The notes under the pieces: generated by a model | What the model saw: only the letters and a program-made list of their open reading frames with translations | What the model was told of the DNA's origin: nothing | The model's database searches: none | Assembly (NCBI GenBank): GCA_963768675.1 | Contig: CAVYIV010000015.1 | Span: 156,345 to 220,344 of the forward strand | Direction of reading: 5' to 3' | DNA from: an uncultured Chloroflexia bacterium | GTDB lineage: Bacteria > Chloroflexota > Limnocylindria > Limnocylindrales > CSP1-4 | DNA length: 64,000 nucleotides | Position numbers and translations under genes: made by a program | Shown: piece by piece, positions 5,047 through 43,688 of the stretch | Numbering within the stretch: position 1 is the first letter of the stretch | Layout: each line of letters begins with the position of its first letter

Positions 5047-5481
5047 CTACTGCACCTGGACGCGCAGCATCCAGGCGTGCTTTTCGAAGATCTCTTCGAT
5101 CCCGATCAGGATCCCCTGGCTGACCGGATCGACACCGAGACGCTCGATCCGCTCCCGAAGGTGCGCGTTGAGGACGTCGATGCGGGACCCGATAAGGCTC
5201 ACTGCGTCTCGATCCGCGACGGTCCCGGCCGGGAAGGGCTCGAGCGGGGTGGCGGCGGCCACCGTGGCGGCGCGCCCGTCGGGGACTTCACGCAGAGCGG
5301 AGAGGCGCTCGGCCACGGTGTCGACCGAAGCGTGGGCCGACTCGACGATCTCATCGAGCTCGAGATGGACGGGCCGGAACAGCGGGCCGACGACGTTCCA
5401 GTGGGCCTGCTTACCCTGCAGAGCCAGGTCGAGCAGCTCGACGAGGCTGGCCTGAAGATCGGCTGTTGCGGGTGCGGACAT
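5047..5481 (-). CDS. dps: Dps family DNA-protection/ferritin-like protein
   Basis: Ferroxidase-site motifs HWNVVGPLF and HLELDEIVE are present, and the length (~145 aa) fits. Convergent with pgm. Confidence 0.85.
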   Translation of the reverse strand: MSAPATADLQASLVELLDLALQGKQAHWNVVGPLFRPVHLELDEIVESAHASVDTVAERLSALREVPDGRAATVAAATPLEPFPAGTVADRDAVSLIGSRIDVLNAHLRERIERLGVDPVSQGILIGIEEIFEKHAWMLRVQVQ

Positions 5482-5725
5482 GAGTTGAACCTCCACGATG
5501 GGCGAAGCGCGCCCGGTCGCACTCGTCGCTTCGTGTCATCGTCGAGCACCGTGAGCCCGACGGACAGGGCCCAAAGTCCCGATCAAACCCGGGCCGCGGC
5601 ATCATGACCGTGGCCGCCGCGGCCGGAGCGAAGCCGAGCGGGGTCGGGCGCCCGGCTGGCGGGCGGGGCACTTTCGGGTGATGGCCAGCGAGGAGCCGGA
5701 AGCATACGGTGACCGTCCTCACGCT

Positions 5726-6490
5726 ATGAACCGCACTGCCTCGCGCCTCCTCCTGCTGTGCCTGGGGATCCTTCTGGCCCTCGGGGCCTTCGGGCTGGCG
5801 CGCGCTGCCGGCGCGTCGTGCAGCCCGCTCGCATCCTCCCCGTGCGTTCGCGTGCTGTTCCTCGGCAACAGCTACACGTACGTCAACGACCTGCCAACTG
5901 TCTTCCGGGATCTCGCCCGGGCCGGCGGGCAAAACGTCGAGACGGGCATGGTCGCGAACGGCGGCGAGACGCTCGCGCAGCACGCGGTCTCGCCCGTGTC
6001 GCTCGACGCGATCCGGGGTTCGAGTTGGCGGTACGTCGTGCTCCAGGAGCAGAGCGAGATCCCGGCGCTCGCCTCGGTCTGGCGGAGCCAGATGTTCCCC
6101 GCCGCGGAGACGCTCGTTGCGGCCATCCGAGCAGCCTCGGCAACGCCGATCCTGCTCGAGACGTGGGCCCATCGCGACGGATGGCCGGAGCAGGGCCTCG
6201 ACCGCGCTGCGATGCAGGCCGCGATCAGCGAGGGTTACCGATCGCTCGGCGCCGACCTCGGGGTCGCCGTCGCACCGGCAGGCGACGCATGGCAGACGGT
6301 GCTGCGCGACGACCCGGCGATCGAACTCTGGCAGCCGGACGGAAGCCACCCCAGCCCAGCCGGGACATATCTCGCGGCGTGCGCGCTCTACAGGAGCATC
6401 TTCAGGGCCGACCCCGTCGGGATTCCCGACACCGCTGGCCTGGCGCCGGACGTGGCCCGGGCGCTCCAAGTCGCGGCCGGGCAGCCATAA
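5726..6490 (+). CDS. secreted SGNH/GDSL-like hydrolase, DUF4886-like
   Basis: Signal peptide plus an Ala-rich lipobox-like region. FLGNSYTYVNDLP is a GDSL-type block I, and the C-terminal DGSHPSPAGTYLAA is a block V-like motif. Confidence 0.55.
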   Translation: MNRTASRLLLLCLGILLALGAFGLARAAGASCSPLASSPCVRVLFLGNSYTYVNDLPTVFRDLARAGGQNVETGMVANGGETLAQHAVSPVSLDAIRGSSWRYVVLQEQSEIPALASVWRSQMFPAAETLVAAIRAASATPILLETWAHRDGWPEQGLDRAAMQAAISEGYRSLGADLGVAVAPAGDAWQTVLRDDPAIELWQPDGSHPSPAGTYLAACALYRSIFRADPVGIPDTAGLAPDVARALQVAAGQP

Positions 6491-11171: not shown

Positions 11172-11574
11172 TCGTGAAACTCAACGGCGACCCTCTCGCC
11201 CTGCTGCGCAGGCCGAGCACCGGCTACCTTGCTACCTCGATGGCCGATGGTTTGCCCCAGGTGACCCAGAGCCTGGGTCGATACGGACGGCGAGCATGTC
11301 ATCATCAATACGGTCCAGTCCCACCTCAAGGTCAGGAACATCGAGCGCGACCCTCGCGTGGCTGTCGCGATCTCGAGCCCGGAGGTCGCTGCCCGCTACT
11401 ATCAGGTTCGCGGTCGGATGGTGAGCACGACGACCGACGGCGGCGGCGAACACATCGAGATGCTCTCCATGAAGTAAACCGGCAGGCCCTATCCCTGGTA
11501 TGGGGGCGGGACCAGGTGCGGGTGATCCTGACGATAGAGCCGGAACACGTGAGCGGCATCAGGTAGAGCGCGGC
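11172..11574 (+). pseudogene. PPOX-class F420-dependent enzyme (pyridoxamine 5'-phosphate oxidase fold), three lesions
   Basis: Pieces in three frames: ...LLRRPSTGYLATSMADGLPQVT | (+1 shift) WVDTDGEHVIINTVQSHLKVRNIERDPRVAVAI...YYQVRGRMVSTTTDGGGEHIEMLSMK-TAA(in-frame stop at ~11476)-TGRPYPWYGG | (shift in a G-run) RDQVRVILTIEPEHVSGIR. Confidence 0.5.
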
Positions 11575-11736
11575 GGTTCGGGCCGAGGAACCGTGGCCGC
11601 GTTGGCCAGCGCTCGTCGACGCGTACAGCCGGGACGTTCAGGCCGGCGGCTGGATCACCGGGAGCGCGCTAGGCTGTGGCAGCGGAGTGGCCGGACCGAG
11701 CCCACCCGCCGCGCCGGGCCCGCGAAGAGGAGATCC

Positions 11737-12543
11737 ATGACCACGGAGACGATCCACGAGGAGGTCCGCGCCCGGTATGCGGCCGCGGCGCTCCAGGCAA
11801 GCGCCGGCGGCTGCTGCTCGGGCGAGCCCAAGCCGATCGGCCTGGCGCTCTACTCCGCGCTCGAGCGGGCGGAACTGCCCGAGGCGGCGGTCCTCGCTTC
11901 GCTCGGCTGCGGCAACCCGATCGCCGTGGCGGAGCTGCGCGAGGGCGAGCGCGTGCTTGACCTCGGCTCGGGTGGGGGGATCGACGTGCTCCTGTCCGCC
12001 AAGCGGGTGGGACCCACCGGGCGCGCCATCGGCCTCGACATGACCGACGAGATGCTGGCCCTGGCCCAGCGCAATGTCGCCGCGGCCGGGGCAACGAACG
12101 TGGAGTTCGTGCGCGGCCACATCGAGGAGATCCCGCTCCCCGCCGAGTCCGTCGACGTGGTCATCAGCAACTGCGTCATCAACCTCGCCGCCGACAAGCC
12201 CGCGGTGTTCCGGGAGATCGCGCGCGTGCTGCGGCCCGGCGGACGGATGGGCGTGACCGACATCGTCGCCGAGGACCGGCTCACCGCCGAGGAGCGTGCC
12301 GCGCGCGGCTCCTACGCCGGCTGCATCGCGGGTGCGCTCTCCTTCTCGGAGTTCCGGGCGGGGCTCGAGGCGGTCGGTCTCAGCGACATCTCCGTCACGC
12401 CGATGCATGCCGTCGCCGACGGGATGGTTAGCGCCATCGTGAAGGCGACCAAGCCAGCCGACGCGAAGCCGATGATCGACCTCAAGCTGCCCGAGCTGCC
12501 GGTCGTCAGCAGCGGCTGCTGCGGGGGAGAGGGCTGCTGCTGA
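11737..12543 (+). CDS. arsM: arsenite S-adenosylmethionine methyltransferase
   Basis: Carries the SAM-MTase motif [12 protein letters not shown], an N-terminal CCSGEP Cys pair and a C-terminal [11 protein letters not shown], which is typical of ArsM/AS3MT. A GAGGAG RBS precedes the start. Confidence 0.85.
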
Positions 12544-12974
12544 TGCGGATCGAGCGGGCGGAGCCGTTTGACGTCCCGGCCGTCGAGGCGCTCCTGACGA
12601 TGGCCGGGCTCCCGCTGGCGGGCGCAGCGGAGGCGCTCGAGACGGGCGTGGTCGCTCGCGACGGCGAGGCTGTCGTCGGTGCCGCATCTGTCGAGCGATA
12701 CGGCTCGGCCGGGCTCCTGCGGTCGGTCATCGTCGCGCCGGATCGACGGGGCGCAGGCCTCGGCCGCGACCTCGTGGCGGCTGCCGAAGAACTCGCCCGG
12801 GGCGAGGGCATCCGCGAGATCTACCTGCTCACCGAGACCGCGATTGGCTGGTTCCCGCGCCTGGGCTACGCGGCCGTGCCGCGCGGCGAGGCAGCGGCGG
12901 TCGTTGGCCGCTCGATCGAGTTCACCACGGCCTGCGCAGAGACAGCCGTCGCGATGCGCCGAGCGCTCGCCTGA
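12543..12974 (+). CDS. arsN2: GNAT N-acetyltransferase, arsenic-resistance ArsN2-like
   Basis: 143-aa GNAT protein (RRGAGLGRDLV...) whose start overlaps the arsM stop (ATGA). The ArsN2 family is commonly found in ars operons. Confidence 0.65.
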   Translation: MRIERAEPFDVPAVEALLTMAGLPLAGAAEALETGVVARDGEAVVGAASVERYGSAGLLRSVIVAPDRRGAGLGRDLVAAAEELARGEGIREIYLLTETAIGWFPRLGYAAVPRGEAAAVVGRSIEFTTACAETAVAMRRALA

Positions 12975-13002
12975 CGGGTCCGGCCGGCACGGGGTATCGG
13001 CA

Positions 13003-13454
13003 TCAGCGCGAAGCGAGCTCCCGCCGCGCGCGACGGGCAAGCTCGACGAACGGTCGAATGCGCATTGTGAGCTGCACCTGGGTCGCCCGGAAGGCCGCGA
13101 GCTTCTCTTCGTCGGACCCTCCAACTCGGCCGGGTCGTCGAGGCCCCAGTGGAGCGCGTTGTGCTCGCCCGGGAACACGGGGCAGGCCTGGCGGGCCCGG
13201 TCGCAGACGGTGATGACGTAGTCCCACGGCTGGTCTAGGAACTCCGCGACGGACTTCCCCCGCGCCAGGGACCAGTCGATCCCGACTCGGCGAGGACTCG
13301 CACGGTGTACGGGTTGACACCTTTCGGATCGGTGCCTGCGGAGTGGACCTCGAACTCCGGCCCGCCGATATGCCCGCAGGAGCGCCTCGGCGATCTGGCT
13401 GCGGGCAGAGTTGCCGGTGCACACGAAGAGGACGCGGATCGGTCTGCTCGGCAT
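13003..13454 (-). pseudogene. arsC: arsenate reductase, LMW-PTP/thioredoxin-coupled type, with three single-nt frameshifts
   Basis: CTGNSARSQIAEALL is the P-loop. GGPEFEVHSAGTDPKGVNPYTVRVLAESG lies in the ORF 13235..13582 frame. IDWSLARGKSVAEFLDQPWDYVITVCD...HWGLDDP lies in the ORF 12312..13832 frame. The C-terminal GSDEEKLAAFRATQVQLTMRIRPFVELAR lies in the ORF 13003..13422 frame. Indels fall in short G/C runs. Confidence 0.6.
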
Positions 13455-13832
13455 CGAGGTGGCCTCCATGGGGCGATGGGCTCGGCCGGCGGCGCGAACG
13501 GTCTGATCGAGATCACCCAGTTCAGCGTCGAGCCGCTCGAGTTCGACGCGATGGCGTTCGATGGCTGCCCGCTGCTCGGCAATCAGCGGCGCGAGGTCGG
13601 CGTCGATGTCGCCCCGTTCGAGACACAGCCGGGCAAGCCGTCCGGCATCCAGCGGCCTGAGTCCGAGCCGTCGGAGCGCGACCACGAGCCGCAGCCGGGC
13701 GAGGTCATCCGGGCCATAGGACCGATACCCATTCGGCTGCCGGGTTGCCGATGGGAGGACGCCGGTCTCCTCGTAGAAGCGGACAGCCGAGGCCGTCACG
13801 CTCGCCTGCTTCGCCAGCTCCGCCACGTTCAT
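13455..13832 (-). CDS. MerR-family HTH transcriptional regulator; reads in-frame into the downstream arsC
   Basis: The N-terminus MNVAELAKQASVTASAVRFYEETGVLP...GYRSYGPDDLARLRLVVALRRLGL is a MerR DNA-binding domain followed by a coiled coil. No stop codon occurs before the arsC start at 13454. Confidence 0.6.
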
Positions 13833-13838
13833 GCTTTG

Positions 13839-13869
13839 AGACTACACCTTCAAGTCAGTTTAAGGTCAA
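13839..13869 (-). promoter_or_regulatory. MerR-type promoter: -35 TTGACC, 19-nt spacer with dyad ACCTT-N9-AAGGT, -10 TAGTCT; the transcript is essentially leaderless
   Basis: Read on the minus strand the sequence is TTGACCttaaactgacttgaaggtgTAGTCTcaaagcATG. The overlong 19-bp spacer and the inverted repeat between the hexamers are the hallmark of MerR-family-regulated promoters. The ATG lies about 7 nt after the -10. Confidence 0.45.
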
Positions 13870-29820: not shown

Positions 29821-30226
29821 TCAGGCGGTCACGACCGTCAGGCCAAGCGCGCGCGCAGCCTGCGCCTGGCGGAGATCGAACGTCACGAAGCCGAACCCGG
29901 GTGCGGAGACTCGTTGCGCGGCCGCGAGATGGAGGGCATCGAGGGTTCGCACGCCGGTGGTCTCCGCGATCGAGGCCGCCGATTCGCAGGTTGCCTCGTC
30001 GAGCTCGATGATCGAGAAAGAGCGCAGATCGTCGGCGAACGCGGCTCGGGCGGCGACGAGGTCGCGTCCCGAGAGCAGGCGAGCGAGGTTGCGGCGAACC
30101 TCAACGATCGTATGGCGGGCAGTGAGCAGCTCGCCGTCGGCTCGCAGCAACGCGTCCGCGGCGGCCGAGTCGGCCTCCTCGACGTACCGCTTGAGGAGGG
30201 CGCTCGAAATCGACGTAGGCGCTCAC
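29821..30226 (-). pseudogene. vapC: PIN-domain toxin VapC with a +1 insertion at codon ~7
   Basis: The GTG at 30226 overlaps the antitoxin TGA. VSAYVD is followed by an extra T in a TTT run, and then SSALLKRYVEEADSAAADALLRADGELLTARHTIVEVRRN... continues in the ORF 29821..30150 frame to ...FVTFDLRQAQAARALGL. Confidence 0.6.
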
Positions 30227-30483
30227 TCGCCGCGATCCTCGGCCAGCGCGTCGAGCACCCGCCTGGACGCCATCGACCGGCGCACCGGACCAAGCGGCGA
30301 ACCGGTGCCCGGCGTGATCCAACCTGCGCGAATCCCGTCCTCGATGCGCGCGCGACCGGGCACCGGACCGAGCACCGCCTTCGGCCGTCCGCGGTCGGTT
30401 ACCCGCAGCACCTCTCCCCGCTCTGCCCGATCCAGGTACTCGGAGAGGCGCTGTTTCAGCTCCCGGATCCCGACATCAGCCAT
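30223..30483 (-). CDS. Phd/YefM-type antitoxin
   Basis: The 86-aa N-terminus MADVGIRELKQRLSEYLDRAERGEVLRVTDRGRPKAVL is characteristic of Phd/YefM. It sits immediately upstream of vapC. Confidence 0.6.
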   Translation of the reverse strand: MADVGIRELKQRLSEYLDRAERGEVLRVTDRGRPKAVLGPVPGRARIEDGIRAGWITPGTGSPLGPVRRSMASRRVLDALAEDRGE

Positions 30484-33617: not shown

Positions 33618-33965
33618 TCAGCCCCGGCCGAGCAGCGTGTCGATCCCGGCGAGGACCAGCTCGAGACTCGACGCCGAGAGGCGACCGGCGCGCTCGGTGA
33701 GCGACGCGCGATCGAGCGTGACGAGCTGGGTGACGTTCGCGACCGACGGCTTCGCGAGCCCGGTCGCCCGGGCAGCCAGCAGGACATTGCCCGGGGCGTC
33801 CGCCCACCTGAGGTTGCTCGTGAGCGCGACGCAGACGACGGTGCGGAGGCTGCTGGCGTTGAAGGCGTCACCCTGGACCACCACGACCGGCCGGCGGTAC
33901 CCGGGCTCCGAGCCGGCGGGCTCGGCGAGGTCCGCCCACCAGACTTCGCCCTGGGCGATTACCAC
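33618..33965 (-). CDS. mazF: MazF/PemK-family endoribonuclease toxin
   Basis: GEVWWADLAEPAGSEPGYRRPVVVVQGDAFNASSLRTVVCVALTSNLR...VTLDRASLTERAGRLS. The GTG start overlaps the antitoxin stop. Confidence 0.75.
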   Translation of the reverse strand: MVIAQGEVWWADLAEPAGSEPGYRRPVVVVQGDAFNASSLRTVVCVALTSNLRWADAPGNVLLAARATGLAKPSVANVTQLVTLDRASLTERAGRLSASSLELVLAGIDTLLGRG

Positions 33966-34198
33966 TCGGCGGCGCCGAGCGTCCGGCGGGCGGCCGCCGC
34001 GGGGAACGGGTCGGTGGGCGGCCCGCCGATGTCCGCGAGCACGGCGTCGAGGCCCGCGGTGACCTCGTCGGGTGCGTGACGGGCGACGTAGTCGCGCAGG
34101 GCCGCGCTGTACACCTCGCTTCGCGACCGGCGGGAGCGCTTCGCGAGGCGGTCCACCTGGGCGAACAGGTCGTCGGGCACCGAGACGGCTGTCTTCAT
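33959..34198 (-). CDS. mazE: ribbon-helix-helix antitoxin (MazE/ParD-like)
   Basis: MKTAVSVPDDLFAQVDRLAKRSRRSRSEVYSAALRDYV is a RHH motif. Confidence 0.6.
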   Translation of the reverse strand: MKTAVSVPDDLFAQVDRLAKRSRRSRSEVYSAALRDYVARHAPDEVTAGLDAVLADIGGPPTDPFPAAAARRTLGAAEW

Positions 34199-34957
34199 AC
34201 CGGGAGTATAACCGCGTACCACGCCCGCAGCAAGAAGGCCGGACCGCGGCGGTCCGGCTTCGGTGTGTCTCGCGAGCTGGTCGGGGCGAGAGGAATTCCG
34301 CCGTCGTGTCTAGCGCTGGCGCCGCGGTCCGGTTCGTGCGTAGAACCGCCGCCCGGGAGCACGCGCACGCGGGTTGACGGGTCAGCCCAAGGCACCGAGG
34401 CAAGGCACCGTCATGCCCCGGGGCGTGACGGTGCGCGTCCCAGCCCGCGGTCGAATTGGACGGCCTCCGGTGAGAGTGGACCGCGCCCTATGGGGCAGGC
34501 CGATCCGGCCTCAGTCGAAGAACGTCCAGTCGGAACGGTAGTCAGCGGGGGCCGCCATCGAATTCGTTCCAGCCACGTCCGCTCGGCGGGCGCTGCGGGC
34601 TTGTCGTCGTGGTCGGGCTGGGAGATCAAGCCGGGGTCCATCACCGCCGGGTCACCCACCACGGGTTGTGCGGAGATGGGCCGCTCTAGGCGGGTGCTGT
34701 CGGGAACTGTTGAGCCGGGACGCATCTCGTCTACACCTTGGCGTCAACCACCGCATCCGCGACGCCCGACGGGCGACGAGCACCTGCCGGCGTAGTGACC
34801 ACTTGCCAAGAGTCAGACGGCATCTGGCCAACAGACACCATCAGCGTCGACCCTCGGGTCGCCCGGTGCGCGTCCCCCCAGATAAGTGCGGAGCGCCCGG
34901 CGAGGAGCCGGGCTCACGTTGGCGCTCATCGGGAACGCGCCGCCCTATCCTCGTCCG

Positions 34958-35557
34958 GTGACCTTGACCGTCGCCGTCGCCGTCTTCCCGGTCATCTTCT
35001 TGGCCGAACTGCCGGACAAGACCATGTTCGCCTCGGTGCTCCTCGCGACGCGAGGCCGACCAGTGTCGGTCTGGGCCGGAGCGGCGCTGGCCTTCGTCGT
35101 CCATGTGGCGCTCGCGGTGACCGTCGGTGGGGTGCTGTTCGCCCTCCTGCCACCCCGCGCCGTGGAGGCCATCGTGGCGGTGCTGTTCCTCGGCGGTGGG
35201 GTCTTCGCTCTGCGCGACAGCGTGGCCGTCGAGTCATCCGAAGGCGAGCGGGCCACACAGGTCGCTGGGGCACGGCGCACCCTCGCCACCGCGTTCCTCG
35301 TCATCTTCCTCGCTGAGTGGGGCGACCTTACCCAGATCCTCACCGCGACCCTCGCCGCCCAGTACCACGACCCTCTTGCCGTAGGGCTCGGCGCGGTCAG
35401 CGCGCTGTGGGCCGTGGCTGCCCTTGCGGTCGGTGCCGGGCGACTTCTGGAACGGCTCCCCATGAGCCTTGTGCGACGCCTGACCGGGATCGTCCTCATC
35501 GTGTTGGCCGTACTCGTCGGGGTCGAAGCCGCGACGGGGCTCAGCGGCCCGCTCTGA
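34958..35557 (+). CDS. UPF0016 / GDT1-TMEM165 family cation (Ca2+/Mn2+) transporter
   Basis: Carries two E-x-G-D-(K/L)-T repeats (AELPDKT and AEWGDLTQ) in a 6-TM protein. The GTG start was chosen just before TM1. Confidence 0.7.
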   Translation: MTLTVAVAVFPVIFLAELPDKTMFASVLLATRGRPVSVWAGAALAFVVHVALAVTVGGVLFALLPPRAVEAIVAVLFLGGGVFALRDSVAVESSEGERATQVAGARRTLATAFLVIFLAEWGDLTQILTATLAAQYHDPLAVGLGAVSALWAVAALAVGAGRLLERLPMSLVRRLTGIVLIVLAVLVGVEAATGLSGPL

Positions 35558-36022
35558 GCGTCAGGCTGCTCACGGTCGAGGAGGCCTCGTCGACGCGGCG
35601 CGACCAGGGGCTCCGTCACGACCGACGTCTCGCCGTAGTACTCGGCCCGCCTGACCTCGCGGAGATCGGCCTCATCGAGCGCCGCCTGCTTGACGGTCAG
35701 GTCGTGTGTGTTGGCCGCCGCGTCCTGGTCCATGCCCAAGCCGCTCATGATCACGGTGCCGACGATGGATGGGTTCGGGGGCTGCATGGCTGCAACGCGC
35801 GCCGCCATCGATGCCCCGTCGAAACGACGACGGTCGCTCCGGCTCGGCCGGCGCCCAGTCGACTGCTTCTGCCTCCACTACGGTGAGGATCGGCGGACGA
35901 GACGATCAAGCAGGCGTCGAACAAGACTCGGAGGCTCGACCGGACCGCGGTGGTTATCCAACCGTTCGACCCGGCGGAGCGACGGCTTGCCGTCCTCCGG
36001 ACGCTCCGGGCGGACATGACGA

Positions 36023-37429
36023 TCAGGAGGGCAGGCCGAGGCGGGCGAGATCGTCCCCGGTGAACGGTGCCGCCGCCACGGAGACTCCCTTCGGGCTGAT
36101 CGTGAACGGCCGGAGGAACAGGTCATGGCCGCTCCCCCGGGTCTTCAGGACCGCCAGCGCTCGCCCGATCTCGCGTCCCTGCAGGGTGTAGCGCAGCAGC
36201 ATCACGTTGTCGGCGAGATTCGAGACCGCCTTGCCTTCCGAGACCGAGCCGAGGCCGGTCAACTCGGCGGTCTCGAACGTCAGAAGGAGCGAGATCCCCA
36301 ACCGTGAACACCGCTGCGACAGCGAGTAGAGGTATTCGCGGAGGCGGGTTTCCTCGCCCACGGTGATCCCCAGGTCGTTGATGCTGTCGATGACGATCCG
36401 GCGCGCGCCGATCCGCGCCGCGGTGTCGAGGACCTCGTACACCCACTCATCGATGTACAGGTCGACGGGCGAGCGATAGAGGATCTCGAAGCGAGACTGG
36501 TCGATACCGAAGACTTCGAGCGTCTGGCGAATCTGGCTCTCATTCTCCTGCAGGCTCGCCAGGAGCACAGGCTCTCCCGCCTCGGCGCCGGCGCCCAGGT
36601 AATGCAGCGCGAGGACGGTCTTCCCTGCGCCGGATGGGCCGGCCAGGAGGGTCGACGAGGAGCGGAAGATCCCCCCGTCCAGCATCCGGTCGATCTCGGG
36701 GATACCCATCGATAGCCGCCCGAGTCCGACCTCGTAGCCGGTCGTCGGCGGCACGTCAGCGAGCCGTGGAAACACGTGGACACCATCAGCCGACAGGCGA
36801 TACGCGTGCTCGCCCGAAAGGTATGCGCTGCCCCGCAGCTTGAGCACGCGCAGCGTCCGCATCTGCCGGGTGCCCACGACGTCCGTGCGGAACGTGATGA
36901 TGGCGTCGGCAACGGCGAACTCGGGAGCCTCGTTGGGCTCCTCCGAGGCGTATTCGCCGACCCAGAAGACGCTCGTGGGTGTGGCGCTCAGACGCTCGGC
37001 CAGCTCGGACGCGAAACGGCGGAAGCTCTGGGCGTCCGGCGCGAAGGCTGCCATGGCCTTGAAGCTGTCGATGACGAGGATGCCCGGCGTGCGCTCGCGG
37101 AGGATCGTGGTGATCTCGTCGAGCGCGCCGTCGAGTCCCCGCCGCTGCAGGGCATCGCTCAGGCTGCCAAAGAACACCCGCCGGCCGATGGCATGCCGGT
37201 CGAAGAAGCTGAGTTCCTGCCCGTAGCGGATCATCTTGTCGAACGGCTCCGACATGGTCGCCAGGTACACAGCGGGGCGCTGCTCGGTCGCATTCTCGAA
37301 GACGTACTGCTCGGCGAGCATCGTCTTTCCCGACCCCGGCAGACCCGAAATCAGGTTGATCCCGTTGACCGGAAGACCGCCGCCCAGCACCTCGTCGAGG
37401 CGCGCGCTGCCGCTGAGGAGACGATCCAT
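36023..37429 (-). CDS. kaiC: KaiC-family double-RecA-domain ATPase
   Basis: 468 aa with two Walker A loops (GLPGSGKT and AGPSGAGKT) and an N-terminus MDRLLSGSARLDEVLGGGLPVNGINLISG. No kaiA or kaiB nearby. Confidence 0.8.
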   Translation of the reverse strand: MDRLLSGSARLDEVLGGGLPVNGINLISGLPGSGKTMLAEQYVFENATEQRPAVYLATMSEPFDKMIRYGQELSFFDRHAIGRRVFFGSLSDALQRRGLDGALDEITTILRERTPGILVIDSFKAMAAFAPDAQSFRRFASELAERLSATPTSVFWVGEYASEEPNEAPEFAVADAIITFRTDVVGTRQMRTLRVLKLRGSAYLSGEHAYRLSADGVHVFPRLADVPPTTGYEVGLGRLSMGIPEIDRMLDGGIFRSSSTLLAGPSGAGKTVLALHYLGAGAEAGEPVLLASLQENESQIRQTLEVFGIDQSRFEILYRSPVDLYIDEWVYEVLDTAARIGARRIVIDSINDLGITVGEETRLREYLYSLSQRCSRLGISLLLTFETAELTGLGSVSEGKAVSNLADNVMLLRYTLQGREIGRALAVLKTRGSGHDLFLRPFTISPKGVSVAAAPFTGDDLARLGLPS

Positions 37430-37436
37430 CAGGCTG

Positions 37437-38093
37437 TCATCTCCCTCTGATCAAGGCGCTCTCGCCGAGCAGATCCCTGACGGTCGACACGAGCACCAGT
37501 GGATCGAGCGGCTTCTTGAGGAACGCGTCCGCGCCGGCGTCGACAGCCTCTCCGGGAATGTCGAGACCGGAGATCGCCAGGATCGGCGTCGATGAGCGCG
37601 CCCTCAGGCGGCGGCAGAGATCGATCCCGGTCCCGCCCGAGATGAGGAGCTCGACGACGGCCAAGTCAGGCTGGGTCTGCCCGAATCGCTCTTCCGCATC
37701 GGCAGCGTCGAGGGTCAGAAGCACCTCATAGCCCTCGGTGCGCAGGAAGTACTCGCTCAACTCCGCGGCATAGCGATCACGCTCCGCCAGCAGGATCAGC
37801 AGCCGTCGCCCACCAGGCATCGCCGGTACGTCTCCGTCGTCGGCCATGCCGAACTGGTCCACGAGCAGGCGATGCGCTTCGGCCGGGGTCGCTCCCTCGG
37901 CGATCTGGGTCTTCAGGAACTGGAGCTGTTCGAGCTGATCTCGCGAGTAGAGCCGCTGCCCCCCCGAAGTCCGGGCGGGACGAACCGTCCCGTAGCGGGC
38001 CTCCCATGAGCGGAGCGTGCCGACCGGAACACCGAGCATGCGCGACACGGCCCCGATCGTGTAGATGGGCCGGGGATTGGATGAGGTCGTCAT
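37437..38093 (-). CDS. MerR-family HTH regulator fused to a response-regulator receiver (REC) domain
   Basis: The N-terminus YTIGAVSRMLGVPVGTLRSWEARYG is a MerR HTH. The C-terminus RRLLILLAERDRYAAELSE...DLAVVELLISGGTGIDLCRRLR...AFLKKP is a REC domain. It sits 8 nt upstream of kaiC on the same strand. Confidence 0.7.
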   Translation of the reverse strand: MTTSSNPRPIYTIGAVSRMLGVPVGTLRSWEARYGTVRPARTSGGQRLYSRDQLEQLQFLKTQIAEGATPAEAHRLLVDQFGMADDGDVPAMPGGRRLLILLAERDRYAAELSEYFLRTEGYEVLLTLDAADAEERFGQTQPDLAVVELLISGGTGIDLCRRLRARSSTPILAISGLDIPGEAVDAGADAFLKKPLDPLVLVSTVRDLLGESALIRGR

Positions 38094-38316
38094 CGACGGC
38101 GATGGTACCCGGTCATGCTGTCATCTGCAAGACATCTACACACTCTCGCTGGAACATGGCCGAGATAGTTCCCAGGCACCTCTATGCAACCTTCACAATA
38201 CATGCTATCCTCCTCGACACAAGAGATGTAGGGGGGGCGACGAGAACCAGGTGTTGCAGGTCGGGATCACCCTGGAGCCGCGCGCCAGCGGCGACGTACC
38301 GGGGTCGCGCTCCCTG

Positions 38317-39093
38317 ATGCTCGGTTTGGGCAACGCCCCTGCCGCCGAACCACGCCGGGCGCTCGTGCTCCACGATCGGCCGCCTGTTGTGGATCTCATC
38401 GAGCTGACGCTGAACCACGGCCTGTTCGTCGTCAAGGCTGCCCACAACCTGCCCGAGGCCGATGTCATCCTGGCCCGATGGCAACCGCACCTCGTGGTGG
38501 TGGACATGGATCACGATGACTCGACGGCCTTGCTCCACAGCTTGGAGACCTTGAACACCCTGACGAGGAGCTTCACGCCAGCTCTCGGCCTCACCCCCCG
38601 GGGCGACCTTGCCACGAAATTGCGGGCCTTCGAACTCGGGGTCGACGACATCCTGACGATGCCGTTCATGCCCGATGAACTGATCGCACGAGCGCTCGTC
38701 CTCGGCCGCCGGGCCACGGGGACCGAGCGGCCCTTGGTCACGGTCGTGAAGGTCGGCGAGATCGAGGTTGATATCGCCAATCACGAAATCCGGATCGGTC
38801 GGTCCGTGACCGTCCTCAGCCGGACCGAGCAGGCCCTGCTGTACCTGCTTGCCAGCCGTGCCGGACGCGTCGTGACCAGGGAAGAGATCCTCGACGTCGT
38901 CTGGGGTCCCGACTTCGTGGCCGAGAGCAACATCGTCGATCGCCACATCCGGAGCCTGCGGGTTAAGCTCCATGACGACCACCGCGACCCGCGCTTCATC
39001 GCCACGGTCTCCGGCGTCGGCTACCGCTTCATCCCGACCTTCTCGAATGCGGGCTGGACCGGCGACGCCACGCGGGACGCGCCGAGACAGTAG
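38317..39093 (+). CDS. OmpR/PhoB-family response regulator (REC plus winged-helix)
   Basis: The REC domain is RALVLHDRPPVVDLIEL...LVVVDMDHDD. The C-terminus ...EILDVVWGPDFVAESNIVDRHIRSLRVKL...VSGVGYRF is a trans_reg_C domain. Divergent from the MerR-REC/kaiC operon. Confidence 0.7.
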   Translation: MLGLGNAPAAEPRRALVLHDRPPVVDLIELTLNHGLFVVKAAHNLPEADVILARWQPHLVVVDMDHDDSTALLHSLETLNTLTRSFTPALGLTPRGDLATKLRAFELGVDDILTMPFMPDELIARALVLGRRATGTERPLVTVVKVGEIEVDIANHEIRIGRSVTVLSRTEQALLYLLASRAGRVVTREEILDVVWGPDFVAESNIVDRHIRSLRVKLHDDHRDPRFIATVSGVGYRFIPTFSNAGWTGDATRDAPRQ

Positions 39094-39882
39094 CAAGCGT
39101 TCAGCGCGTGGACCTCGTACGTGCCGGCTCCCAGCTGCGCGGTCACGGCTCGGTGGCCCTTGCCCACGGCGTCCGAGAATGACTGGACGGGAGCGGCGAC
39201 GGTCAGGCGCGCGACCGCCTCGCCACCTCGCTCGTAGCGGACCTGGGTCTCCATCCCGTAGATGTCGGTGCTCCTGACGCCCAGCTCGGCCGGCTCGCAG
39301 CCGATCAAGCCCGCGACCCAGGCCCGCGCATCCCACGTCCCCACGTCAGGACTCGACGCGATGTGCGCCGGGGCGCGAGGCGATGGCCGCGCCGATGATC
39401 AGCGCCGGCGCCATCCCGGCCGCGACCACCAGGCGCGGTGCCCCGGCCAGGGAAAGCCCCGCGCCGAGACCGACCGAGCCCGCGGCGAGCCACCGGAGCA
39501 TCGGGTCCGGGAGCATCTGCAGGGCGCTCCTTGTTCCGCCGGCCCCGGTCCGCGTCGCGCGAATTGTCCCGGGGACACGACTCGCGAGCGCCCTGCCGGC
39601 GGTCCGGGCGATCGTCAGCGCCCCCGCCAGGCGCCGCCCGGCACGCGCGTGGCGGCGGCGAGGATCATGCGCGGGCGGCGACGTGCTTGTGGCGCGCCGC
39701 CTGCCTTTCACGACGTTCATGTCTGACTCCTGCTCAGCGATGGCCGGCGCGAGAACCAGCACAGGAGCGGCCCGAAGCGGAGCCGGTCCTGCCTGACACC
39801 CGCGCCGAGCCGAGCTGCCGCCTGCATCGCTGCTACGCGGTGCAGGCCGCCTTCCGACCAGGCTTCAGCGAGGAACGGTGAG

Positions 39883-41165: not shown

Positions 41166-41310
41166 CACGGCGATCCGTGGGCCACACAGTGGTGCCACGC
41201 CCGCGAAGTCAGTGCGGGTGCCAAGACCGGCAACTCAAGTTGGGAGGGTGCGCAGGCCCACGATGAAGCCGCCGTGAATGGCGAGTGGATCGGCGCACAA
41301 GGAGAACAGC

Positions 41311-41745
41311 ATGGCCATCGATCAGGTCGACCAGACGGTCGTCACCCGGCAACCCACGGTGGTCGCCACGCAGGAGTCGGGACCTGCGGCGACGAGCCAG
41401 GAGACGGTGCGGACGGAAAGCCGCCAACTCACGCGGTCGGGACCCGGCGGCTCCGAGATGGCCCGCCGGATCATCGTCCTGCTGTTCGGGCTCATCCAGA
41501 TCGTCATCGGGCTGCGGATCATCCTGCTCCTGCTCGACGCGCGCACCGGCAATGCGCTGGTGTCCGGCATCCTCGACCTCAGCAAGATCTTCGTCGCACC
41601 GTTCGACGGGATCCTCAACACGAATGCCCTTTCGTCGGGTGGTTCGACCCTCGACGTGGCGGCCGTGGTCGCCTTCGTCGGCTGGTCGGTCCTCGAGCTG
41701 ATCGTGATCTGGGCCATCGGCATCTTCCGGCGCGAGCCGGCCTGA
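41311..41745 (+). CDS. YggT-family membrane protein
   Basis: AAGGAGA RBS. RRIIVLLFGLIQIVIGLRIILLLLDARTGNALVSGILDLSKIFVAPFDGIL is characteristic of YggT. Confidence 0.5.
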   Translation: MAIDQVDQTVVTRQPTVVATQESGPAATSQETVRTESRQLTRSGPGGSEMARRIIVLLFGLIQIVIGLRIILLLLDARTGNALVSGILDLSKIFVAPFDGILNTNALSSGGSTLDVAAVVAFVGWSVLELIVIWAIGIFRREPA

Positions 41746-41774
41746 CTCCCGAGCACAGGGAAGGAGCGAGCGCA

Positions 41775-42044
41775 ATGGGCCTCATCGCCTGGATCGTCGT
41801 CGGCGCGATCGCCGGCTTCCTGGCCAGCCATCTCATGCGTGCCCGCGAGAGCCTTCTGATGATGATCGTCCTTGGCATCGTCGGCGGACTCGTGGGCGGG
41901 TTCGTTGCCGCGACCGTCCTCAAGATGGGCACGGTCGACGGGATCAACATCGAGAGCATCCTCATCGCCACAGTCGGCGCGATCGCGGTCATCTTCCTCG
42001 TCCACCTCGCGACCGGCTCGCGCGGTCTTCTGAGTCGCAGGTGA
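41775..42044 (+). CDS. GlsB/YeaQ/YmgE (transglycosylase-associated) family stress membrane protein
   Basis: MGLIAWIVVGAIAGFLASHLM...IVLGIVGGLVGGFVA, with a GAAGGAG RBS. Confidence 0.65.
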   Translation: MGLIAWIVVGAIAGFLASHLMRARESLLMMIVLGIVGGLVGGFVAATVLKMGTVDGINIESILIATVGAIAVIFLVHLATGSRGLLSRR

Positions 42045-42070
42045 GGACACGCGGCAGGACGGACATTGTG

Positions 42071-42256
42071 ATGGCTGATCAGCACGTCAAAGGCACGCTG
42101 AGCCAGGCCCGGGGCAGGGTTGAGGAAGGGCTCGGCAAGGTGACCGGGGACAAGCGGGAGCAACTGCGCGGCAAGGCCAGGCAGGTCCAGGGCGACGCCC
42201 AGAAGGGACTGGGTGATCTCCAGGACGCCGTCCGAAAGCCGAAGAGCAGGCCCTGA
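42071..42256 (+). CDS. CsbD-family general stress protein
   Basis: MADQHVKGTLSQARGRVEEGLGKVTGDKREQLRGKARQVQGDAQKGLGDLQDAV is a typical CsbD repeat architecture. Confidence 0.65.
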   Translation: MADQHVKGTLSQARGRVEEGLGKVTGDKREQLRGKARQVQGDAQKGLGDLQDAVRKPKSRP

Positions 42257-42305
42257 CCCCGGACCGGGGCCTGACCGGAATGCGGTCGGCGACCGGCTCC
42301 CGCCG

Positions 42306-42326
42306 ATCATGACGGGCCGTCATGAC
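42306..42326. repeat. double-palindrome motif copy 5 (ATCATGAC-GGGCC-GTCATGAC)
   Basis: ~75 bp upstream of the glycine-zipper gene. Confidence 0.5.
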
Positions 42327-42402
42327 TCCTTCCCGTGTTGACAACACACTCAGGTTCGCAAGCGGCACTGTTCCGCTCGCACCCAGGCCAGGAGATCACG
42401 TC

Positions 42403-42690
42403 ATGACCGAGCACACGACCATCGAGCGCCAGACCGTCACCGAGACCAGCGCGGCGCCGCTCGAAACGGTCGAGAAGGACTACGCGAAGGGCGTCCCGCA
42501 CGGTGACGAGGAGGTCGGCGGCGCCTTCCTCGGCGGTGCAGCTGGTGCAGTCGCCGGAGCGATCGTTGGCGGGCCCGTCGGAGCCGTCGTCGGTGGCGCG
42601 ATCGGCGCAGCGGCCGGCGCAACGGGCGGTGCGATCGACCAGAAGCACAAGGACGACACGGTCGTCGTCACGCGCGAAGTGCGGCGCTGA
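42403..42690 (+). CDS. glycine-zipper small protein
   Basis: AGGAGA RBS. GGAFLGGAAGAVAGAIVGGPVGAVVGGAIGAAAGATGGAI contains GxxxG repeats. Confidence 0.5.
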   Translation: MTEHTTIERQTVTETSAAPLETVEKDYAKGVPHGDEEVGGAFLGGAAGAVAGAIVGGPVGAVVGGAIGAAAGATGGAIDQKHKDDTVVVTREVRR

Positions 42691-42866
42691 TCGCTCGGGT
42701 CAGCCCGGCCGGTCCTCGCTCCACTCATGTCACGACCCACCGCGCCGTATCGCGTGGCCGGTCGTGACGCAGTGAGCGCCGCGCCCCGGGCGACCGTCGA
42801 GCAAAGACGGATCGCTGGGCGCAATTCCCGGTCGAGGCCTTGCGGGCGAACAGCGGGGAGTTGGGC

Positions 42867-43043
42867 ATGAGATCCGGCTTTTCGTCTCTCGTGAGCCTCG
42901 TCTACCTCATTGTCGGTCTGGTCGTTGCGTCGAACCACTCGTTCTTCGCGAGTCTCAACGCCCTGATGCCGATCCTCTCGGCGGTCCTTGCGGTTGTGCT
43001 GTGGCCGCTCGTGCTCCTGGGTGTCGACCTGCACCTCCATTGA
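42867..43043 (+). CDS. hypothetical small membrane protein
   Basis: 58 aa: MRSGFSSLVSLVYLIVGLVVASNHSFFASLNALMPILSAVLAVVLWPLVLLG. Confidence 0.3.
   Translation: MRSGFSSLVSLVYLIVGLVVASNHSFFASLNALMPILSAVLAVVLWPLVLLGVDLHLH

Positions 43044-43249: not shown

Positions 43250-43688
<439 letters not shown>

Follow-up and report, generated by a model that had tools for sequence, protein, structure and literature searches.

The regulator and KaiC-like genes

The 64-kb stretch of DNA analysed here (the window; 71.2% GC), whose nearest public sequences are metagenome-assembled genomes labelled Candidatus Limnocylindrales or Chloroflexia (Chloroflexota), contains a gene for a KaiC-like ATPase, a gene for a regulator in which a MerR-type helix-turn-helix (HTH) is fused to a receiver domain and, on the opposite strand, a gene for an OmpR/PhoB-type regulator (Table 1). 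All three open reading frames (ORFs) lie where an earlier note on this DNA, made from its letters alone, had placed them, and scoring with Pfam cut-offs found two KaiC domains in the KaiC-like ORF, which carries both Walker A motifs (GLPGSGKT and GPSGAGKT). The TGA stop codon of the fusion gene occupies 37437-37439 and the ATG of the KaiC-like gene 37427-37429, so that the spacer is one nucleotide shorter than the 8 nt given in that note. An AGGGAG Shine-Dalgarno-like sequence for the KaiC-like gene is found inside the 3' end of the upstream fusion gene; this position and the short spacer suggest that translation of the two genes may be coupled. The divergent intergenic region was described as 223 bp long and comparatively AT-rich, which holds (60.5% GC) if the OmpR-type gene starts at the ATG at 38317; the public gene call prefers a GTG at 38251, leaving 157 bp with 54.8% GC.

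Table 1. Features of the regulator/KaiC-like locus in the window
Feature	Position	Strand	Details
KaiC-like double RecA-type ATPase	36023-37429	-	468 aa; two Pfam KaiC (PF06745) domains, 200 bits
Spacer, regulator stop codon to KaiC-like ATG	37430-37436	-	7 nt; sequence read directly
MerR-HTH/receiver fusion regulator	37437-38093	-	218 aa; MerR_1 63.5 bits (cut-off 21.6), Response_reg 53 bits
Proximal tandem repeats GTGTGTAGATG TCTTGCAGATG	38122-38143	-	20.4 bits, best position weight matrix match in 64 kb on either strand; units 9.4 and 11.0 bits; 5' leader, candidate operator
Four consecutive 11-bp slots	38179-38222	-	Candidate operator over promoter; second-best tandem match in 64 kb, 14.5 bits (38179-38200)
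Slot unit TTGCATAGAGG	38179-38189	-	5.6 bits
Slot unit TATTGTGAAGG	38190-38200	-	8.9 bits
-10-like hexamer TAGCAT (TANNNT)	38202-38207	-	Conserved placement
Slot unit TTGTGTCGAGG	38212-38222	-	11.1 bits; next slot holds the -10-like element
Divergent OmpR/PhoB-type regulator	38317-39093	+	Trans_reg_C 84.5 bits; Response_reg 30.0 bits (cut-off 30.2)

The reported absence of KaiB and of a histidine kinase is borne out within the window. A tblastn search with S. elongatus KaiB gave a best E value of 0.38, whereas the same query detected kaiB beside canonical kaiC in two unrelated metagenome loci (L095 and L096). Pfam found neither HisKA nor HATPase_c in the genes of this trio or in about 40 other ORFs of the window, and tblastn searches of the 64 kb for KaiB, a histidine kinase, a second receiver or a second KaiC-like gene returned nothing below E = 0.2.

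A scan in which every GTDB species was represented by a single genome, and aligned MerR-receiver sequences served as query, found relatives of the fusion, confirmed by tblastn, in 304 species genomes; the combination is hence not as uncommon as the earlier note had supposed. Synteny was determined for the best 80 of these 304 relatives, with extrapolated start codons. The hosts include Actinomycetota (Solirubrobacterales, Thermoleophilia, Acidimicrobiia, Jiangella, Streptosporangiaceae, Micromonosporaceae and Pseudonocardia), Limnocylindrales and further Chloroflexota, and Dormibacterota. At every one of the 80 loci a KaiC-like gene, 44-95% identical to that of the window, lies directly downstream of the fusion gene on the same strand, with a median stop-to-start distance of -1 nt (range, -13 to +26), and the same order is present in four independent metagenome loci whose KaiC-like proteins are at least 48% identical. 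The proposed link between receiver and KaiC-like protein thus stands, but the OmpR-type gene adjoins the pair in only 3 of the 80 loci, those of the closest Limnocylindrales/Chloroflexia (L002-L004). The conserved unit is therefore a pair and not the three-gene set that was originally put forward, and the OmpR-type gene is a lineage-specific neighbour. No KaiB was found across the 80 loci and a kinase-like match occurs within 8 kb of the pair in a single one, so that the lack of a linked histidine kinase is itself conserved. In the closest relative, L002, the OmpR-type gene is closely followed by an additional paralogue that encodes only a receiver (5279-5809, minus strand; 65% identity over 136 aa), which has no counterpart in the window.

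A reciprocal test, in which a metagenome scan was anchored on the KaiC-like protein, showed how far this pairing extends. Relatives with at least 48% identity have the full fusion gene upstream; those with 36-41% identity have instead a stand-alone receiver of 143-156 aa directly upstream (L086-L089); and canonical KaiC, at 27-28% identity, has kaiB downstream. The KaiC-like proteins of the fusion clade and of the stand-alone-receiver clade have a TxSEP and an FQE(N/T/S) signature in common, and the stand-alone receivers have Glu at the acceptor position and D/E-R-D/N in the acidic pocket. As the pairing reaches stand-alone receivers at such low identity, the association of receiver and KaiC-like protein predates the fusion. 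Histidine-kinase segments flank the stand-alone pair in L086, L087 and L089, the order in L086 being receiver, KaiC-like protein and GAF-kinase; judging from these loci, the linked kinase is lost in the fusion clade. A plausible evolutionary route appears to lead from a receiver, a KaiC-like protein and a kinase to a kinase-free module by fusion of a CarH-type DNA-binding domain to the receiver. The sister-clade gene groups, with their GAF-histidine kinase genes in a Pseudomonas-like arrangement, occupy 3550-6524 in L086, 3522-7259 in L087 and 744-2563 in L089.

Active sites of the receivers and of the ATPase

The fusion regulator is laid out as a CarH/LitR-type winged helix (residues 9-81, approximately), a disordered linker (82-96) and a C-terminal pseudo-receiver (97-210). 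In an AlphaFold2 (AF2) monomer model (pLDDT 77) the receiver has a (beta-alpha)5 fold, which Foldseek matches to the OmpR/PhoB-type receivers KdpE, RstA and MtrA with target-normalised TM scores of about 0.8-0.88. The domain was aligned with CheY and PhoB, and its catalytic columns were tallied over 186 family members. The first acidic residue (CheY D12) is E104, and the second, metal-binding one (CheY D13) is R105, with Arg in 181 of the 186 members; the acidic pocket accordingly reads E104-R105-D106. S175 occupies the position of CheY T87 (Ser in 178) and K194 that of CheY K109 (Lys in 183). At the phospho-acceptor position (CheY D57) the window has E148, and the family has Glu in 101 members, Asp in 83 and Ala in 2, Glu and Asp alternating within phyla with no clear relation to taxonomy or to the presence of a STAS gene. 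Glu is unable to accept a phosphoryl group in two-component chemistry. The free exchange of Asp and Glu among orthologues argues that acceptor-site phosphorylation is not the conserved function of this domain.

The receiver of the OmpR-type regulator has retained its Asp and Thr, but its first acidic residue is replaced by His and its conserved Lys by Met (by Ile in L004). A receiver lacking any one of five residues (DD, D, T/S and K) has been defined as a pseudo-receiver (PMC12632262), and by this definition both receivers of the locus are pseudo-receivers. Phosphotransfer to either of them seems unlikely on the residues present. Atypical response regulators and pseudo-receivers are presumed to be regulated through conformation or partners and not through Asp phosphorylation, and their activation mechanisms have been described as largely unknown (PMC12632262). 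The fusion differs from the pseudo-receivers reviewed there in its reversed order, with the DNA-binding domain N-terminal and the receiver C-terminal, and in being joined to a MerR/CarH-type domain with an obligatory KaiC-like partner; the text of that review has no match to MerR. The most conserved surface of the fusion receiver is formed by FLRTEGYEV (alpha1-beta2) and a C-terminal DLLGxSA, which we regard as a candidate interface.

The KaiC-like protein retains the architecture of KaiC with a partly altered active site. Its top solved-structure match by sequence is KaiC (8zn5, 175 bits), and its AF2 monomer model (pLDDT 84) superimposes on full-length KaiC structures with a Foldseek TM of about 0.82 at 23-28% identity; it is presumably a hexamer. 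The Walker A and B motifs and the Arg finger of each domain do not vary among 61 orthologues, and Ser is found at the position of KaiC S431 (S403 in the window protein) in 60 of 61 sequences. The neighbouring T432 position is His or Asn in the family. The catalytic FEE of CI (E77/E78 in KaiC) has become T-(V/M)-S-E-P, in which the Glu is shifted, and E318-E319 of CII has become Q294-E295 in all 61 orthologues. KaiC E318 is regarded as the catalytic base for autophosphorylation. It is also the residue mutated in PDB entry 4dug.

These features separate the protein from the cyanobacterial clock. A 5-residue gap coincides with the region aligned to the KaiB-binding loop and, in both the alignment and the AF2 model, the protein ends about 17 residues past its last strand with no C-terminal KaiA-binding tail. 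Scores against the NCBIfam KaiC equivalogs fall below cut-off (NF006799, 190.7 versus 408 bits; TIGR02655, 143 versus 546.25 bits). The shorter loop region, the missing tail, these scores and the absence of KaiB all support the view, already taken in the earlier note, that the locus is a KaiC-centred signalling module and not a circadian oscillator. The likeness to KaiABC lies in the double-domain KaiC fold, the P-loops, the Arg fingers and the Ser at the S431 position, and pseudo-receivers also occur in Kai signalling (the N-terminal domain of KaiA, and CikA). The differences lie in the lack of KaiA and KaiB, the changed EE pairs (TxSEP and QE), the replacement of T432 and the output, which in cyanobacteria runs through SasA/CikA-RpaA and here would run through a fused transcription factor. 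Pfam found no RadA-type DNA-binding or Lon-type domain in the protein.

A CarH-like DNA-binding domain and tandem 11-bp repeats

The HTH of the fusion belongs to a particular branch of the MerR family. Its best solved-structure matches are Thermus CarH (5c8d, E = 3e-14) and LitR (3whp, E = 4e-14), and its best NCBIfam match is CarH. Classical MerR activators (of the MerR, SoxR and CueR type) have the same N-terminal winged helix-turn-helix, but theirs is followed by a long antiparallel coiled-coil dimerisation helix and recognises a palindrome in a 19-20-bp promoter spacer; in the AF2 model of the fusion, the winged helix spans residues 13-81, helix 70-81 has only 12 residues before the disordered linker and there is no long MerR coiled coil. 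When a palindromic operator of the MerR style was looked for, just two inverted pairs of 9 nt came up, with separations of 65 and 117 nt, and neither is credible. What the upstream region has instead is direct repeats.

Autocorrelation of the upstream regions of 79 loci gave a peak at 11 nt (170 observed versus 76 expected, z = 8.2), with a harmonic at 22 nt (z = 4.3). The underlying unit is 11 bp long, has the consensus TnTTGAnGAGG and occurs in tandem. With two-fold cross-validation of a tandem position weight matrix (PWM), 33 of 39 and 36 of 40 held-out loci scored above the 99th percentile of controls, and the best site was on the gene's own strand in 71 of the 79 loci. Compared with GC-matched low-GC controls, 69 of 78 loci exceeded the 95th percentile (Mann-Whitney p = 2e-28). 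Two of three independent metagenome fusion loci also scored well (L082, 19.6; L084, 13.2; but L083, 6.1), while the four stand-alone-receiver loci had scores of -0.4 to 10.3, one of them borderline. The window holds three units of more than 10 bits within 38122-38222 (11.1 bits; 10.0 bits at 38188-38198; 11.0 bits at 38122-38132), versus 21 in 128 kb. In many related loci TAGCAT, or TATCAC/TACCAC, stands 2-3 nt before the first repeat, and from this conservation the hexamer is a putative -10 promoter element. A scan for terminators at 35500-39500 found one at chance level only, and no known RNA element was found in the approximately 100-nt leader by Rfam at gathering thresholds, the tRNA-Pro gene being the only match.

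CarH proteins recognise three or four direct repeats of 11 bp (nnnnTnnACAn), which stand in tandem and overlap -35 or -10 elements (PMC9304148). The fusion regulator and the CarH/LitR B12-dependent photoreceptor repressors thus have in common the type of winged helix, the lack of a MerR coiled coil and, as a candidate here, an operator of three or four tandem 11-bp repeats at promoter elements; the TG core of the present repeat also resembles the reverse complement of the TnnACA of CarH. On the model of CarH, and since no other transcription factor is shared by all loci, we infer that the fusion binds the tandem repeats and regulates its own synthesis. The likeness ends at the C terminus, where CarH and LitR have a four-helix bundle and a B12-binding Rossmann domain and the fusion has a receiver fold. 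The C-terminal domain was considered as a degenerate CarH B12-binding domain (AERD for GERH) and this was rejected as unsupported, since the match scored -0.1 bits where the receiver model scored 53 bits. In that match, which is not significant, HMMER aligned residues 98-125 of the fusion (LLILLAERDRYAAELSEYFLRTEGYEV) with residues 177-216 of CarH 5c8d (GERHEIGAMLAAYHLRRKG), the ExHxxG region. Since no ExHxxG motif is found at a significant score, light or B12 sensing is not expected. A distant relationship between the receiver and the CarH B12 domain, both of which are flavodoxin-like, is conceivable but unsupported.

A second arrangement was noted in Solirubrobacterales/Thermoleophilia (L009, L014, L027, L028, L051 and others). 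In these loci a GTG start has another TAGCAT 7 nt upstream of it, about 16 nt ahead of where the regulator begins; before this hexamer come two or three heptads of the CTCATCA type, spaced by 11 nt and oriented oppositely to the distal repeats. The closeness of this TAGCAT to the GTG suggests a leaderless transcript.

Proposed mechanism and alternatives

We propose that the gene content, synteny, active-site substitutions, folds and conserved repeat element described above reflect a two-gene, histidine-kinase-free operon in which the state of an ATPase gates an autoregulating repressor by direct contact, a reading to which we would give a probability of slightly more than one half (about 0.55). 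The first gene would supply the transcription factor, with a DNA-binding domain of the CarH/LitR branch and the pseudo-receiver as sensor, and the second, translationally coupled to it, the KaiC-like double-domain ATPase. An oligomer of the regulator, joined through the receiver domains, would bind the tandem 11-bp repeats over its own -10-like element and in the leader, within the region shared with the divergent gene, and so repress transcription. What would be relayed to the pseudo-receiver, by direct protein contact, is the nucleotide state of the ATPase and possibly also whether Ser403 is phosphorylated; this would alter the oligomerisation or DNA binding of the regulator with no phosphoryl transfer to the receiver. 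As the regulator would control synthesis of the ATPase, a feedback loop would result that could time or latch a stress response. The contact between the two proteins and the direction of control are, like the binding of the repeats, our inferences. Two precedents exist for direct contact: the KaiC-like protein of Pseudomonas putida physically binds a neighbouring single-domain response regulator (bioRxiv 10.1101/2022.01.26.477890), and pseudo-receiver surfaces serve in cyanobacterial Kai signalling.

Several points weigh against this proposal. Contact between the regulator and the KaiC-like protein is putative, and their co-transcription alone would also fit a relation of regulator and target. 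Some other factor might bind the repeats, and the -10 assignment gains no support from a scan of 35500-39500 for consensus sigma-70 promoters, which found none. With Gln in place of Glu318, autophosphorylation of the KaiC-like protein is only putative, and the autokinase activity ascribed to it in the earlier note is unproven. Some phosphorylation chemistry is possible in the 45% of orthologues that keep the acceptor Asp with Ser and Lys, and D106 might stand in for the missing metal ligand. Outside the 64-kb window, the genome may encode KaiB or a cognate kinase. Finally, fusion genes more distant than the best 80 of the 304 might have no KaiC-like partner.

The co-transcription and the autoregulatory repeats would also suit an ordinary regulator-effector operon. 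The fusion would then sense some other cue (a ligand, redox, acetyl phosphate or, in Asp-bearing orthologues, an unlinked kinase) and control a KaiC-like/RadA-like stress or repair ATPase with no feedback from it. NCBI names close homologues of the ATPase 'RAD55 family ATPase', and some pseudo-receivers are known to bind small ligands (PMC12632262). However, receiver and KaiC-like protein are adjacent in L086-L089 as well, although the receivers there have no DNA-binding domain at all, so that what ties the receiver to the ATPase is not transcriptional. The physical interaction of KaiC-like protein and response regulator in Pseudomonas, and the lack of RadA DNA-binding and Lon-type domains in the ATPase, also argue against this explanation, which we consider fairly unlikely.

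We are more doubtful of a stronger claim, that the pair is a self-contained KaiC-type timer whose transcriptional output is built in. A slow ATPase, possibly also an autokinase, would gate the autorepressing CarH-like factor directly through the pseudo-receiver, and the two would make up a minimal transcription/post-translation feedback loop that works as an hourglass or an oscillator. In soil Actinomycetota, Chloroflexota and Dormibacterota that are not photosynthetic, this loop would time entry into or exit from a SigB-like general stress state, and would do so with neither a histidine kinase nor KaiA or KaiB.

The neighbours of the pair in other genomes, whose representatives were checked by Pfam and whose occurrences were counted with hidden Markov models (HMMs) built from the loci, raise another alternative. 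The commonest third neighbour is a STAS anti-sigma-antagonist gene, which 45 loci have no more than 3 kb upstream of the pair. In 39 of these the STAS gene is divergent; in six Acidimicrobiales-type loci it is co-directional, only 15-51 nt upstream, and would appear to be the first gene of a STAS/MerR-receiver/KaiC-like operon. The other recurrent neighbours are a SigB-like sigma factor (15 loci), a PAS-GAF-PP2C phosphatase (11 loci), an MpsC/DUF2294 protein (9 loci) and a MEDS plus HATPase_c_2 anti-sigma kinase (8 loci). Of the 80 loci, 58 have one or more of the four partner-switching types (STAS, sigma factor, PP2C and MEDS-HATPase_c_2 kinase), and this neighbourhood points to a general-stress output. 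The STAS proteins retain the FIDS(S/T/A)GL motif, which we take to carry their phosphorylatable Ser. The KaiC-like protein might thus act mainly on a STAS/sigma cascade, as a Ser kinase or a scaffold for the anti-sigma antagonist, while the fusion merely sets the level of expression. Yet HMM searches found no partner-switching gene in the 64-kb window, and the window, L002-L004 and about 22 other loci have the pair with no STAS, sigma or PP2C gene nearby. As so many loci with the pair have no partner-switching gene, the invariant component is the receiver and not STAS. The cascade, of the RsbV/RsbW/SigB type, is accessory to the pair, and that it should be the main target is distinctly improbable. 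Among L007-L081, examples of the STAS gene are found at 7446-7889 in L009, at 7377-7865 in L015 and immediately upstream of the fusion gene in L022, L057 and L059.

The idea originally advanced, that the KaiC-like protein autophosphorylates and passes its phosphoryl group to the receivers of the fusion and the OmpR-type regulator in place of a histidine kinase, draws on the lack of a linked kinase, the nearly invariant Ser at the S431 position and the receiver folds of both neighbouring genes, but is very hard to sustain in view of the acceptor Glu in the window and in 54% of orthologues (with Asp or Ala in the remainder), the Arg at the Mg-binding Asp position, the invariant Gln for KaiC Glu318 and an OmpR-type receiver with His and Met at its conserved sites that is present in so few loci. 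We know of no KaiC relative that carries out Ser/Thr-to-Asp phosphotransfer.

The nearest known systems are the KaiC-like/histidine kinase/single-domain response regulator modules of environmental Pseudomonas described by Terrettaz et al. (bioRxiv 10.1101/2022.01.26.477890). These too have a non-circadian KaiC homologue in an operon with a receiver protein, and no KaiA or KaiB; the KaiC homologue binds both the response regulator and the kinase and has a role in stress resistance, and the same three parts recur in our sister clade. In the present family, by contrast, the receiver is fused to a DNA-binding domain, has no functional acceptor pocket and has parted from the linked kinase, and we propose that the output is direct control of transcription where that of Pseudomonas is a phosphorelay. 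A KaiC-like protein with a response regulator in stress signalling is hence a known kind of system; the new features are the CarH-type DNA-binding fusion, the loss of the kinase, the pseudo-receiver chemistry and the candidate direct-repeat operator. No prior description of a KaiC-like/MerR-receiver pair was found in open-access papers and bioRxiv preprints.

KaiC homologues occur widely beyond the cyanobacteria, yet little is understood of their outputs, and the only characterised bacterial examples that we found signal through histidine kinases. If our proposal is true, the pair would represent the shortest route known between a KaiC-type ATPase and DNA, needing just one partner protein, in a widespread kinase-free signalling pair of soil bacteria. 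It would also give the pseudo-receiver family a defined partner and a predicted operator, making the system directly testable, and among the hosts of the pair are the cultured Solirubrobacter soli DSM 22325 and Jiangella asiatica.

Other features of the window were noted in passing. A small general-stress-type gene run lies on the plus strand at 41278-43043, 2-4 kb beyond the OmpR-type gene, and encodes an unknown protein of 155 aa, a Transgly_assoc/YmgE-like membrane protein (about 41780-42044), a 67-aa membrane ORF, a CsbD-like protein (42041-42256; 52 bits) and a Gly-zipper_YMGG protein (42322-42690); the tandem-repeat motif is weak there, with a best match of 8.9 bits at 42028. Two type II toxin-antitoxin pairs, an RHH antitoxin with a PemK toxin and a Phd/YefM antitoxin with a PIN toxin, are found close upstream of the module on the minus strand (33618-34222 and 29821-30483). 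The sole RNA gene of the 64 kb by ARAGORN and Rfam is a tRNA-Pro (CGG) at 43612-43688 on the minus strand. A second MerR-HTH fusion, to a low-molecular-weight phosphatase (ArsC-like LMWPc) domain, stands beside a SAM-dependent methyltransferase (12312-13841, minus strand, and 11473-12543, plus strand), and these two genes may form an arsenic- or redox-related pair.

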